Below are positions 54,581-58,756 of a stretch of DNA of 58,756 nt, piece by piece (position 1 is the stretch's first letter; each line of letters starts with the position of its first letter). The translations under genes were made by a program, and so were the position numbers. The DNA comes from Planctomycetota bacterium. GTDB taxonomy: Bacteria; Planctomycetota; UBA8108; UBA1146. The DNA is taken from assembly GCA_036338595.1 (NCBI GenBank), contig JAYZBV010000095.1, positions 1-58,756 on the forward strand, written 5' to 3'. Below the pieces are notes generated by a model. The model was not told the DNA's origin and did no database searches. It saw only the letters and a list, made by a program, of their open reading frames with translations.

Positions 54581-54799
54581 CCCGACCAGGCAAGATGGTG
54601 TGCGAACCGGGCACCCGGTGCATGATCTGGCAACCTGGATTCTGACTGATCATGTACCTGACTTGATCGAGAGGGGTATATTACCGTTCAGTTCGGGCGG
54701 ATGGCATGGATCGCTGTGGACATGTGGCTTCCAGTCTTCTGAACTGGGTTGCACATCAACATTCACGACCTCTCACCGACGGTGAGTCCTGGAGGGAAG

Positions 54800-56302
54800 A
54801 TGCGTTCGATATTCTGGATACTGCTGCTGTTCTCGGTGCTGGTACCATCTTCACACGCCTTCGGAATCCAGGAAGAGGCCTCGGGTGAAGATGCCGCTGC
54901 AGTACTGCTCGCTCGCCTGGAGGGAACCGATGCAGCCGGCAAGGGCAAGGTGCTGGATGATGTTCTCGCAGAAGGCTCAAACCAGATTCTTGCTGTGCTG
55001 TCCCTGGTAGTCGATCGAACCGATTCCACTGGAACCCCGAAAGAGTGGCAGCAACAACTGAACTCGGATGTGACTGCTCGTCAGGTCATCAGTGGACTCG
55101 TCATGCTTGCAGCCGCACCCGGCAATCAGAAAAACAGTACCGTTCTCGCCGGCCTCCTCACCCAGCAACTCTCCGAGAAGTCGAAGGAAGGAATCGAGAG
55201 ATTTCTCATCCGGATGCTCGGTGATCTGGGCAACCCGATCGCAGTAGAAGCGCTATCGGCTTCCGTTCGGGCCGATGAAGATTGGTCCGATGAAACGGTT
55301 CGGTCACTCGGATCGATACCTGGTGACGACGCCAGGGAGTCTCTCATCTCCTTGATGCTAGAGGCTCCTTCTCGCTGGAAACCTGCCATTGCAACGGCTC
55401 TTGCGACAAGAACTGCCTCTAGCTCGCTGATCGGCGTGCTCCTCACATCCCTCAAGGACCCTGATGAATCGATACAGATCGCCGCGCTCGATGCGCTGGT
55501 TTCGCACGGTGCAGAACAGGCGATGAAACCCGCTGTGGACCTGCTACTGCAATGTGATCCGGAGCAGAAGGGAATGCATGCTCAGCGTATTCTGGAGCTG
55601 GCGCATCAACTCGATGAAAACCAGCACGAGGTCTATGCCCGGAATCTACTCGATGCATTGCTGCTGACGCCGGGAGTCCCGGATAAACGACGAGTTGTTG
55701 CAACCAGGCTTCGCCAGCGTTGCGGTGCCTGGAAATCGCTCTTCGATGGATCCAGCTCCGATGGTTGGATAGGAGCTGTAGACGGCTATCAATTCTCAAA
55801 CGGTGAGATCCACTGTACTGCCGGGACTGGTGGCAACATCTATACCAGGGATCAATACGGTGATTTCATTCTCAGATTCGAGTTCAAGTTATCTCCAGGA
55901 GCGAATAACGGCCTGGGATTGAGGACTCCTTCATCCGGGGATGCTGCTTATTCCGGAATGGAAGCACAGATACTGGACGACTCCGCCGAAAAATGGGCCA
56001 ACCTGAAACCATATCAGTATCACGGGAGCATTTATGGAGTTGTCCCATCGCGGCGAGGATTCCAGAAACCGGTCGGAGAGTGGAATCAGCAGGAAGTCCG
56101 CTGCGATGGACGCCACGTGAAGATCGTTCTCAATGGCCATGTCATCATCGATGCAGATCTCGACGCAGTAATCCGCGGTGGAACCATCGATGGGCGAGAG
56201 CATCCGGGACTGACCAACTCATCGGGTCACATCGGTTTTCTGGGACATGGAGATGCCGTGGCATTCAGAAACCTCAGAATCCAGCAGCTCGTCCACAACT
56301 GA
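54800..56302 (+). CDS. Secreted HEAT-repeat plus DUF1080 (3-keto-disaccharide hydrolase-like) fusion protein
   Basis: Signal peptide; helical repeats; SLFDG...GW, YGDFILRFEFK, NNGLG, EAQILD, GSIYG, GEWN, GHIGF.GH...FRNLRI. Confidence 0.88.
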   Translation: MRSIFWILLLFSVLVPSSHAFGIQEEASGEDAAAVLLARLEGTDAAGKGKVLDDVLAEGSNQILAVLSLVVDRTDSTGTPKEWQQQLNSDVTARQVISGLVMLAAAPGNQKNSTVLAGLLTQQLSEKSKEGIERFLIRMLGDLGNPIAVEALSASVRADEDWSDETVRSLGSIPGDDARESLISLMLEAPSRWKPAIATALATRTASSSLIGVLLTSLKDPDESIQIAALDALVSHGAEQAMKPAVDLLLQCDPEQKGMHAQRILELAHQLDENQHEVYARNLLDALLLTPGVPDKRRVVATRLRQRCGAWKSLFDGSSSDGWIGAVDGYQFSNGEIHCTAGTGGNIYTRDQYGDFILRFEFKLSPGANNGLGLRTPSSGDAAYSGMEAQILDDSAEKWANLKPYQYHGSIYGVVPSRRGFQKPVGEWNQQEVRCDGRHVKIVLNGHVIIDADLDAVIRGGTIDGREHPGLTNSSGHIGFLGHGDAVAFRNLRIQQLVHN

Positions 56303-56311
56303 CCATTGCAT

Positions 56312-56351
56312 GAAAAAATGGGAGCCTCTCGACTTAGATCGAAAGGCTCCC
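56312..56351 (-). terminator. Intrinsic terminator on the minus strand
   Basis: Minus strand GGGAGCCTTTCGA-TCTAAG-TCGAGAGGCTCCC-ATTTTTT; its one non-Watson-Crick pair is G-U only on the minus strand. Confidence 0.8.
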
Positions 56352-56875
56352 CGGAATAGGGCTTCGAGTACCCTGAATTCGTAAGAAAACAAACTCTCTT
56401 ACAACCAGCATAGGATCGAAGCCAGGGTCCCTGCTAAATAGGGGGACTTGAAAACGTCTGCGGGATACCGCCTCTCGATTGGTGATCAGGAGTTGAAACA
56501 ATTTCGACTATCGTTGTAACTCGTTGATCAGACCAATCCGTCGCAAAATACCAGAGACGGTATTACCCGACAGAACGTCCTGGAGGTTAATTTGCTGCTG
56601 ACTCCTCGCATTGTGAAACTTACCACTGGCCAATTCACAACCTCGACGGCCTCCAGCAATCTGAAGGCGCTGTCGAGAAATGCTGTGGGGGGGGGGTTAT
56701 CAGATTTTGACTGAAACGGCAGCAAGTAATCTCCGTACAAGCCATCCAAACCTCTCCCACACAGCATGATTCGACAACAGGGAATGCGTCTCCTCCACCT
56801 GAATCTCCTTGATACCGCTTGTTCACAAATGACATCTCTGGAGATGTGGCGAGTTCCCGACCAGTGCAGCTGGTC
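56312..56875 (-). ncRNA. Candidate large structured non-coding RNA, family not recognised
   Basis: At least four consecutive long irregular hairpins, mostly minus-strand G-U wobbles, own terminator, TACACT -10-like box at 56877-56882, no credible long CDS. Confidence 0.55.
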
Positions 56876-57068
56876 TAGTGTAATCAAACGAGATATTTCA
56901 ACATCAAGAGCGAGGTACCTGGGGCTGCCTCCGATTCGAAGCCGCCGTGCGAAGCCCGTGGCCCGGACCATCTGGTTCCCTGGAGGGTATTGATCTCTTG
57001 ATTCTGAATCCAGGATCCGCAAGAGTACCCCGGTTCATCCAGCCGACGCATAATTGGGGGGAATACAA

Positions 57069-57587
57069 ATGTCCGAGACTCGATCCGAAGCCATCACACT
57101 CAAGGGAACTCCATTTGATGTGAAGGGCCCGCTACTTGAGGTGGGAAACAAAGCGCCTGATTTTCTTCTACTGAACGCTGGACTGGAGGAAGTCACCAGA
57201 TCTTCCTTCTCCAGCAAGAATCTGGTCATCGCAACGGTACCTTCCCTCGATACTCCGGTCTGTCAGCAAGAAACCAAGCACTTCAACGATGCCATCGGTG
57301 GCAATGACTCGACAGAAGTACTGGTCGTCAGTGCAGACCTTCCTTTTGCTCAGAAACGCTGGTGTGGGGCTGAAGGAGTCGAGAATGTCACAACTCTCAG
57401 TTGCCATCGTTCCAGCGCTTTCGGCGAAGCTTACGGGGTTCAGATCAGCAACGGGCCACTTGCGTGTTGCCTGGCGAGGGCAGTGTTTGTTGTCGACGCC
57501 GAGGGAATCCTCACACATGTGGAGTATGTCAAGGAAGTGGCAGATCAACCCGACTTCGATGCGGTGTTGAGCGTCGTCTCCGCTTGA
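57069..57587 (+). CDS. tpx: Thiol peroxidase (atypical 2-Cys peroxiredoxin)
   Basis: VPSLDTPVC, VSADLPFAQKRWCGAEG, LARAVFVVD. Confidence 0.93.
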   Translation: MSETRSEAITLKGTPFDVKGPLLEVGNKAPDFLLLNAGLEEVTRSSFSSKNLVIATVPSLDTPVCQQETKHFNDAIGGNDSTEVLVVSADLPFAQKRWCGAEGVENVTTLSCHRSSAFGEAYGVQISNGPLACCLARAVFVVDAEGILTHVEYVKEVADQPDFDAVLSVVSA

Positions 57588-57729
57588 GGCTCTGGCACCC
57601 GAGGATAGAGAGCGCCGGGATCGCGTGTTCCGGCTGAGTTCGACAGAGACCAAGAACGCAGTCGAAATCAGAGACATCGTGGCAAGAATGCTCCACGATC
57701 TCTCTTCAGCATGAAACAGGGGCTCAAAG

Positions 57730-58422
57730 ATGACAGACATGAAGAAGTGTGCCGCAGAAGCAGTGGGTACCTTTTACCTCTGCTTTGCCGGAATCGCCTC
57801 CATCCTGGTCGTTACGATGAACGGATGGGGTGGAGATTCAGGTGGTCTGCTCATCATTGCGATGGCTCACGGGTTGGCGCTGTCGATCGGCGTCTCGGTC
57901 ACTGGAGGGATCTCGGGAGGGCACCTCAATCCCGCAGTGACCATCAGCATGCTAGTAACAGGGCGGATCCCGCTGCCGCTGGCCCTGAAGTACATCGTCT
58001 TCCAGATCCTGGGGGCGAGTATCGCTGCTTATCTCTGCACGGTTCTCTTCGCAGGGACCGATGCGGTGGCAGCAGCCAACCTCGGTATCCCACTGCCGGG
58101 CGAGGCATTTGCCAACCCGACCACGATCATCCTCGGCGAGTTCATCCTCACATTCTTGCTCGTCACCTCGGTCTTCGGAACAGCCGTCGATGAAAGGGGT
58201 CGAGCCGTCAAGTTCGGAGCACTCGCCATCGGACTGACCGTTGCCTTCGACATCCTCGCTGGCGGCGCGATCACGGGGGCCTCGATGAATCCTGCTCGCT
58301 CCCTCGGTCCTGCCCTGATCCAGGGTGACTTTCAGTTTCACTGGTGCTACTGGGTGGGACCGGTGCTGGGAGCCGTTGCGGCGGGGCTCTTCTATGACCG
58401 CGTGCTGCTCGACAAGAAGTGA
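57730..58422 (+). CDS. Aquaporin (MIP family, AqpZ-like)
   Basis: SGGHLNPAV and GASMNPARS, YWVGP, 6 TM. Confidence 0.93.
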   Translation: MTDMKKCAAEAVGTFYLCFAGIASILVVTMNGWGGDSGGLLIIAMAHGLALSIGVSVTGGISGGHLNPAVTISMLVTGRIPLPLALKYIVFQILGASIAAYLCTVLFAGTDAVAAANLGIPLPGEAFANPTTIILGEFILTFLLVTSVFGTAVDERGRAVKFGALAIGLTVAFDILAGGAITGASMNPARSLGPALIQGDFQFHWCYWVGPVLGAVAAGLFYDRVLLDKK

Positions 58423-58438
58423 CGGAAGAGAAGCGGGC

Positions 58439-58756
58439 TCAGTTTGTTTTCACCGGCGTCTCGGATGAGTCGCGATACGAAGAACCCTGTCTCGCCACCA
58501 GCCAGCGGCGCAGTGGAGCGGGAGTCATCCACAGGATGATCAGCAGCGTCTTGTAGACGAGACCCGGCACGCAGTAGATCTTGCCCCTCTCGCAACAGTC
58601 GAGCGCATCGCTGGCGACACGATCCGCTTGCAGCCACAAGAAACCGGGCATCTTCGACATCTTCTCCCGTGTTCCGGTCACATCGTGAAACTCCGTGTAG
58701 GTGAATCCTGGACAGAGCGATGTGACATGAACCCCGCTTCCCTTGCACTCCAGTGC
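58439..58756 (-). CDS. Short-chain dehydrogenase (DltE-like), C-terminal part only
   Basis: Frame open to the window edge: ALECKGSGVHVTSLCPGFTYTEFHDV...ADRVA..AL...YCVPG. Confidence 0.8.
   Translation of the reverse strand, partial: ALECKGSGVHVTSLCPGFTYTEFHDVTGTREKMSKMPGFLWLQADRVASDALDCCERGKIYCVPGLVYKTLLIILWMTPAPLRRWLVARQGSSYRDSSETPVKTN

Follow-up and report, generated by a model that had tools for sequence, protein, structure and literature searches.

A probable structured non-coding RNA of about 450 nt, apparently undescribed and restricted to one genus of Planctomycetota

Introduction

RNAIII of Staphylococcus aureus is an RNA of 514 nt. The conserved C-rich words of RNAIII, RsaE and CyaR are seeds that mask ribosome-binding sites, in the case of RNAIII by means of loops (PMC2837412). 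Listeria Rli31 is described as binding a complementary leader in vitro without regulating it and as binding protein as well (PMC4959528), and 6S RNAs are presented as rods of ~200 nt with a central bulge (PMC4227106). Regulatory RNAs of the Planctomycetota are barely described.

The window analysed here, a stretch of 58,756 nt, is a contig (C95) of G000, the genome (2.9 Mb, 88% complete) of an uncultured marine planctomycete. It contains a putative minus-strand RNA gene that resembles S. aureus RNAIII in its length, its several hairpins, a terminator of its own and a conserved word rich in C (PMC2837412). The RNA differs from RNAIII, RsaE and CyaR in showing no sequence or Rfam similarity to them, and from RNAIII in that a single C-rich word occupies a linker beside the base of a hairpin instead of loops, that no peptide gene is embedded and that base-pairing is only a candidate activity, with no target found here. 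A long hairpin, a terminator and a C-rich motif are also found in Rli31, which consists of a single hairpin and a terminator and carries its motif in the apical loop (PMC4959528); the planctomycete RNA differs in these points and has no Rfam match. With 6S RNA it has in common a long irregular rod, but this rod measures 130 nt, is devoid of a central bubble, is embedded among hairpins and gives no match to the 6S model (RF00013). Repeated GGA hairpin loops of the CsrB/RsmZ type are absent from the folds, and no small ORF common to the lineages, as would be expected of a type I toxin-antitoxin system, was found on either strand.

A preliminary description, prepared from the letters of the stretch, had placed the size of the RNA in the range of OLE, ROOL and GOLLD without assigning a family. 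The likeness consists in a large bacterial RNA whose stems are kept while the sequence varies, as in those families (PMC12286853). Unlike them, the planctomycete RNA comprises ~450 nt, 270 of them structured, is folded into simple hairpins arranged side by side and in series, and yields no covariance-model match; unlike ROOL and GOLLD, it is located on the chromosome between metabolic genes, with no prophage and no tRNA nearby. A pseudoknot or multi-branch core like that of OLE, ROOL and GOLLD, RNAs that fold over roughly 600-800 nt and form homo-oligomers, was not seen with the folding programs used, which do not predict pseudoknots. On these grounds, the RNA is not a member of these families.

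Materials and methods

Apart from the copy of G004, relatives of the locus were located through tpx and synteny rather than through sequence. For the comparison with other intergenic regions of G000, one random window of 227 nt was drawn from each gap of at least 300 nt (291 gaps) and compared with 8 shuffles each. In the pair test, the 3′ domain of one copy, terminator included, was folded, the pairs broken by the substitutions of the other copy were counted, and the count was compared with 2000 random placements; the test was performed on five genome pairs in both directions. For the scoring of targets, the candidate seed was matched against 2180 start regions of G000.

Results

The gap 56303-57068 lies between the end of a hydrolase gene (56302, plus strand) and the start of tpx (57069, plus strand). 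The hydrolase gene is the convergent neighbour of the RNA and is kept as its neighbour in relatives. The stretch of the RNA is single-copy in G000; no transposase, reverse transcriptase or integrase was detected among the 8 neighbouring genes scanned, and no tRNA within the window or in 11 related loci. The plus-strand sequence CTTGATTC near 57000 is invariant in all nine genomes of the genus, including G002, which is devoid of the RNA, and by its spacing is the probable −35 box of tpx. The −10-like box of the probable tpx promoter (57021-57026), read by eye, has the form (G/A)ANANT across the genus and not TANNNT. A stem near 56985-57030, which the preliminary description had counted as part of the RNA, overlaps this promoter and was not retained.

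The RNA is carried by 8 of the 9 genomes of the genus, always at the same place upstream of tpx. Seven copies are complete (G000, G004, G005, G006, G008, G003 and G001), with a gap of ~680-780 nt between the same two genes, and the copy of G007 is split over two overlapping contigs. The copies belong to three lineages, A (G000, G004), B (G005, G006, G008, G003) and C (G001, G007), which have almost no alignable sequence in common and cannot be joined by blastn. What all eight copies have in common is CTTGATTC, a block of 68 nt and the word CCUCCAG, followed by hairpins of ~130 nt, of short length and of ~65 nt and by the terminator (Table 1). CCUCCAG (56586-56580) is the only invariant run inside the RNA (8/8 copies), and within lineage B the invariant run at the motif amounts to 17 nt. 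The distance from motif to terminator in the seven complete copies is 227, 227, 228, 227, 222, 239 and 218 nt, the outlier of 239 nt arising from a duplication of 15 nt. Homology across the lineages rests on synteny, motifs and architecture. In G002 the gap measures 340 nt and the RNA has been lost: the first letters of the conserved block are retained, and everything down through the terminator is gone. Because G002 is devoid of everything down to the terminator, the terminator belongs to the RNA element, and the element is dispensable.

Table 1. Features of the RNA locus and its surroundings; positions are those of the window.
Feature	Position	Strand	Basis or remark
Putative RNA gene, ~450 nt	56312..56762	-	folding, 8/9 syntenic copies, RNA-library contigs
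Intrinsic terminator, 14-pair stem and U tail	56312..56351	-	hairpin with U-rich tail in 8/8 copies; absent in G002
P3, irregular hairpin of ~65 nt	56360..56423	-	place and size alike in lineages A, B and C
P2, short hairpin	56427..56447	-	seen in each individual fold; unalignable across lineages
P1, long irregular hairpin of ~130 nt	56451..56581	-	basal 18 pairs over 8 sequences
Invariant CCUCCAG at the P1 foot, consensus RAYYARCCUCCAG	56580..56592	-	anti-Shine-Dalgarno-like candidate seed
Variable 5′ part, holds stems 56671-87/56760-76 and the 56650-56 arm	56593..56762	-	
Gap-free conserved block, probable promoter and regulator site	56769..56836	-	20/68 columns invariant, 8 copies
HEAT-repeat and 3-keto-disaccharide hydrolase domain protein	54800..56302	+	PF06439 E 1e-41, PF13646
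Thiol peroxidase Tpx, divergent neighbour	57069..57587	+	NF001808 206 bits, cut-off 123
MIP/aquaporin-family channel, 3′ of tpx	57730..58422	+	TIGR00861 above cut-off, PF00230
Probable tpx promoter: TTGATT, 17 nt, AAGAGT	56998..57026	+	outside the RNA; function assigned by spacing

The segment 56300-57040 folds with a z-score of −6.76 on the minus and −4.16 on the plus strand (20 shuffles per strand). The signal is not spread over the gap. On the minus strand, 56312-56762 reaches z −6.40, with none of 100 shuffles as good, and the 3′ domain (227 nt from CCUCCAG to the terminator, the latter excluded) z −7.25, against −3.57 on the plus strand; the 176 nt located 5′ of the motif (56587-56762) fold weakly (z −1.7), and 56763-57030 has no structure (z +0.54, 139 of 200 shuffles as good). 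The structured part is thus the 3′ ~270 nt. In the intergenic comparison, the random window from the RNA gap ranked second of 291 in energy below its shuffles, and the first-ranked window holds tRNA-Phe. The 3′ domain folds weakly in two copies, those of G005 (z −0.6) and G003 (z −1.6). Across lineages, the apical half of P1 cannot be aligned. The 5′ part has a length of 170-176 nt in lineages A and B and of 125-129 nt in C, its z-scores over the eight copies lie between −2.4 and +2.0, and its pairs were preserved in none of four genome pairs.

Measured against these data, the geometry of the preliminary description was right in its parts and too generous in its extent. The terminator on the minus strand is present, with its stem at 56351-56320 and the U tail reaching 56312, and the long stems 56360-67/56416-23, 56461-75/56553-69, 56580-86/56650-56 and 56671-87/56760-76 all lie where they had been drawn. 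That nearly the whole gap is structured did not hold, since the signal is confined to 56312-56581 and 56763-57030 folds like its shuffles, and the size of 560-700 nt shrinks to a conserved structure of ~270 nt within a transcript of ~450 nt (~400 nt in one lineage).

In the pair test on the minus strand, fewer pairs were broken than expected by chance in G000/G004, G005/G006 and G006/G008 (P <= 0.0005 in both directions), the latter two pairs having one genome in common; significance was not reached for G008/G003 (13 substitutions, P 0.6) or for G001/G007 (P 0.12-0.17). On the plus strand, 3 of 10 tests gave P 0.016-0.043 and none a lower value, and control segments (upstream, block and 5′ part) were significant in 0 of 12 tests. 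Counts of pairs that change on both sides were obtained for P3 plus terminator (17 of 34 pairs, 6 sequences; 0/500 shuffles), for P3 alone (14 of 19 consensus pairs, 6 sequences) and for basal P1 (14 of 18 pairs with 79% of cells paired, 8 sequences; 0/500 shuffles); the structures were derived from the same alignments that were counted and the sequences are related, so that these counts lean towards the result. The counts of P3 plus terminator and of P1 were also well above slid controls. Within lineage B alone, 7 of 32 pairs change on both sides; of 500 shuffles, 50 matched this count and 2 matched the share of cells paired. Two copies that had been left out of a model of the 3′ end were recovered by it: that of G003 with E 1.8e-21 and, with E 1.6e-14, the end missing from G007. 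Read from sequence comparison, the spared pairs demonstrate that selection acts on minus-strand pairing in the 3′ domain, and G-U-preserving changes together with the U tail favour the minus strand. In two genome pairs the 3′ domain is more alike than are the four-fold degenerate sites of the genes on either side (90% vs 381/477 and 95% vs 177/213), whereas in G005/G006 it is not (81% vs 169/201, i.e. 84%).

Part of the stretch occurs in three marine RNA-library runs from three studies, among six runs listed. Contigs of four runs, which had been chosen with the RNA as query and have a depth of 4-9 and no DNA control, were placed on 54700-58700. The contig of run X1 covers 56413-56573 and is identical to the window; those of X2 (56415-56634) and X3 (56416-56634) are ~91% alike to it and close to G004. 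In the X3 contig, 108 loose letters begin in G004-type sequence and would reach ~56745, leaving 17 nt to the predicted start. On tpx and on the aquaporin gene, pieces are short or less than 90% alike, the pieces on flanking genes being those of distant organisms, and run X4 has no piece on the RNA, which carries no weight either way. The contigs support transcription without proving it, and they give neither strand nor ends nor level. All three end at 56413-56416 in the 5′ arm of P3, one of them with adapter-like letters, a faint sign of either RNA processing or an artefact of the library.

The conserved block is the probable promoter of the RNA. It is laid out as TG(T/A)CA, then T(T/G)GAG (56797-93), a spacer of 17 nt and T(C/T)(G/A)AAT (56774-69). 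The −10-like hexamer has no A at position 2, unlike the promoters before several tRNA genes of G000, in which this A is present; because the −10 is non-canonical, its recognition may call for a regulator or a different sigma factor. From the position of the block, transcription would start near 56762 and may start up to ~40 nt further upstream; the RNA would end at the terminator, its 5′ end lying, with some uncertainty, between ~56760 and 56805. The TACACT box noted earlier at 56877-82 is present on the minus strand, but has a counterpart only in the closest relative, G004. That the gap holds no credible minus-strand gene was borne out: no conserved ORF occurs in it, no ORF with a start common to the three lineages was found on either strand, and for the 164-codon minus-strand frame of the window Pfam gave no match. 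A minus-strand frame of 69-73 codons in G000 and G004 was rejected as a gene, its differences (read by eye) being mostly amino-acid-changing and without a counterpart in lineages B and C, and a plus-strand reading of the motif as W-R-L-I/V was dropped for want of a common start and with frames that break around the motif.

Searches of Rfam 15 gave no match at gathering score in the window, and five chance matches (E 0.17-9.3) far below the cut-offs; in eight loci of relatives two chance matches were obtained, neither inside the RNA. RNase P, tmRNA and SRP RNA, of which no hallmarks had been noted, are encoded elsewhere in the genome (C65, C114 and C65, respectively). The proposed BLAST search was productive in one case only: blastn over 61 related genomes found G004, at 85%, and nothing else among the 60 others. 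A P1 model built from lineage B alone found neither lineage A nor C. The P1 model from all eight copies found those eight, nothing in G002, and outside the genus weak matches in 4 of 50 genomes (E 0.005-0.13); two of these were read and lie in other contexts, and in three of the four genomes the 3′-end model gave nothing credible. Weak matches of the 3′-end model elsewhere (34 genomes, E 3e-5 to 0.5) were judged at 13 of 19 loci, where one is the true G007 copy and the others are ordinary post-gene terminators or a leader terminator. Many terminators of the family, including that of the window (56320-56351) and those at L232-L235, L237, L239, L241 and L251, carry GATC on both stem arms near the loop, and this shared stem accounts for the weak 3′-end-model matches after unrelated genes. 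A 14-nt pattern of the motif was discarded as a homolog marker, because it occurs by chance within genes of the family. Metagenome contigs with tpx homologs yielded no further copy, phage and plasmid records no match to the RNA, and exact-word scans of viral contigs 0 and 2 matches, the two being unrelated. No homolog was thus found outside the genus; given the fast turnover of the sequence, this is not proof of absence. No description of such an RNA was encountered in the literature surveyed; motif lists outside Rfam, in supplements of RNA-discovery papers, could hold one. In another genus (L113, L008), a different long AT-rich gap lies in the ~690 nt upstream of tpx; it is unrelated to the RNA by either model and, in L113, has no Rfam match.

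Discussion

The locus very probably holds a real non-coding RNA gene, apparently an undescribed, genus-restricted, structured RNA of ~450 nt. Four lines of evidence back the central claim of the preliminary description, a novel and independently terminated structured RNA on the minus strand: its folding, its syntenic place in 8 of the 9 genomes, substitutions that preserve pairs and the contigs from RNA libraries. In 16S rRNA the anti-Shine-Dalgarno core reads CCUCC, and because the invariant word CCUCCAG is anti-Shine-Dalgarno-like, a trans-acting base-pairing regulator that works through this word is the favoured, if tentative, reading of its function. Transcription of the minus strand would run away from tpx, from the promoter in the conserved block to the RNA's own terminator at 56312; the hairpins would form a stable scaffold, and CCUCCAG with its A/U-rich 5′ flank would pair with CUGGAGG-type ribosome-binding sites of mRNAs and block their translation.

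CTGGAGG, the complement of the invariant word in DNA letters, stands upstream of 53 of the 2180 crude gene calls of G000. The predicted unpaired probability of CCUCC ranges from 0.0 to 0.7 over seven copies, with partners that differ from copy to copy: in the window copy the motif is unpaired in the predicted centroid, and in most copies it is half paired or paired. In the predictions it has no conserved internal partner and does not lie within a hairpin loop. Three candidate target sites of the 2180 scored, two top-ranked ones and the ribosome-binding site of the hydrolase gene, were traced into relatives and pairing was kept in none of them; a fourth candidate gene has an ortholog in one of five genomes. 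At the hydrolase gene, rejected as a target, 10 bases pair in G000 and G004 and not in lineages B or C. Neither Hfq nor CsrA was found in G000 (88% complete). A bolder and decidedly unlikely version would see here a new class of large Planctomycetota RNA in which a rod-like scaffold presents an imitation of the 16S rRNA 3′ tail and which works without Hfq; equally speculative is that such an RNA would act broadly on CUGGAGG mRNAs or on a translation factor and be co-regulated with the peroxide-defence gene tpx and the aquaporin gene. Many of the top-ranked CUGGAGG-site genes encode proteins with signal-peptide-like starts. Were the 16S-tail mimic true, near-total sequence turnover would conceal the homologs in other parts of the phylum. 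Joint regulation of the RNA, tpx and aquaporin under peroxide stress is a guess from their shared regulatory region.

The precedent of Rli31 (PMC4959528) makes a protein-binding RNA a close rival. In this rather unlikely case the RNA would be a decoy or scaffold in which shape counts and sequence does not, with CCUCCAG as the protein contact, in one form a divergent 6S-like RNA whose P1 binds RNA polymerase. The retention of pairing while the sequence drifts almost neutrally in some lineages (G005/G006, 81% vs 84% at four-fold sites) would suit such a function, as would the failure to find a base-pairing target. 6S RNA itself, which binds RNA polymerase and serves as a template for product RNAs, was detected in 0 of 28 family genomes with RF00013, but the control detected it in 5 of 14 only, so that this absence says little; moreover, P1 at ~130 nt has no two-sided central bubble, and its largest bulge is on the 5′ strand in lineage A and on the 3′ strand in B. 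Protein binding in general has to contend with the lack of a detectable CsrA in G000 and with the loss of the RNA from one member of the genus. Improbable as well is that the RNA consists only of its 3′ 270-290 nt, with a promoter or processing site before CCUCCAG, or that the transcript comes from the plus strand, e.g. as a long tpx leader. The 5′ part is indeed neither structured nor conserved, the contig stops at 56413-56416 could mark a plus-strand 5′ end, and the plus strand folds too (z −3.6). Two contigs, however, cross the motif into the 5′ part, one of them to ~56745, promoter-like hexamers common to the lineages were not seen by eye near the motif or before 56413, and a plus-strand transcript is disfavoured by the G-U-preserving changes, by the U tail and by the conserved promoter that tpx has of its own.

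It is doubtful that the locus is a domesticated or decaying remnant of a mobile element or of a type I toxin-antitoxin system, its hairpins having in the past served a small gene as structured leader or trailer. Confinement to one genus and the clean absence from G002 would be expected of a remnant, and read in the plus direction the motif is CTGGAGG, a word common as a ribosome-binding site in G000, with TTG 4-5 nt after it in 4 of 8 copies. Yet the peptides after CTGGAGG, of 40, 26, 5 and 5 residues, are unrelated and the other four copies have no start at this spacing; the RNA is single-copy, matches no phage or plasmid, has no mobile-element gene among the 8 neighbours scanned, and in two lineages selection on pairing still acts. 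Very improbable, finally, is the reading that the region holds just a usual terminator and promoter, with hairpins that arose by chance and no functional RNA. Gap identity near the neutral level in several pairs and the weak folding of two copies are what it would lead one to expect, but the folding signal remains without the terminator, lengths and architecture recur in three lineages, and it is only in the 3′ domain, mostly on the minus strand, that substitutions avoid breaking pairs.

As a regulator or otherwise, the RNA turns over its sequence completely within one genus while its shape stays, a pattern by which homology searches miss such RNAs. For experiments the candidate offers a strain in which it is naturally deleted, a scaffold with covariation and a single invariant word; its value is limited by the narrow range, the uncultured host and the target not being found.

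Three further elements were observed in the vicinity or in related genomes. In lineage B (L120:150-225, L121 and L255), the hydrolase gene is directly preceded by a hairpin that carries a word resembling a tRNA T-loop, with CCA after it; ARAGORN and Rfam made no call on this hairpin, which may be what is left of a tRNA or a small leader element. Two other genera of the family (G019, L236:1400-1609; G018, L253:1500-1641) have, directly before a gene for a UbiB/ABC1-like kinase, a conserved leader that contains a C/U run and a hairpin resembling a terminator, U tail included. This leader has no Rfam match, related matches occur at L243, L244, L247 and L248, and it looks like a transcription attenuator. 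On another contig of G000 (C19, L272:147-977), a protein of 277 aa without Pfam match is encoded, whose C-terminal part has 128-150 scored matches per genome in five genomes of the genus, many of them in large proteins; by these matches, it is a hugely expanded domain family.
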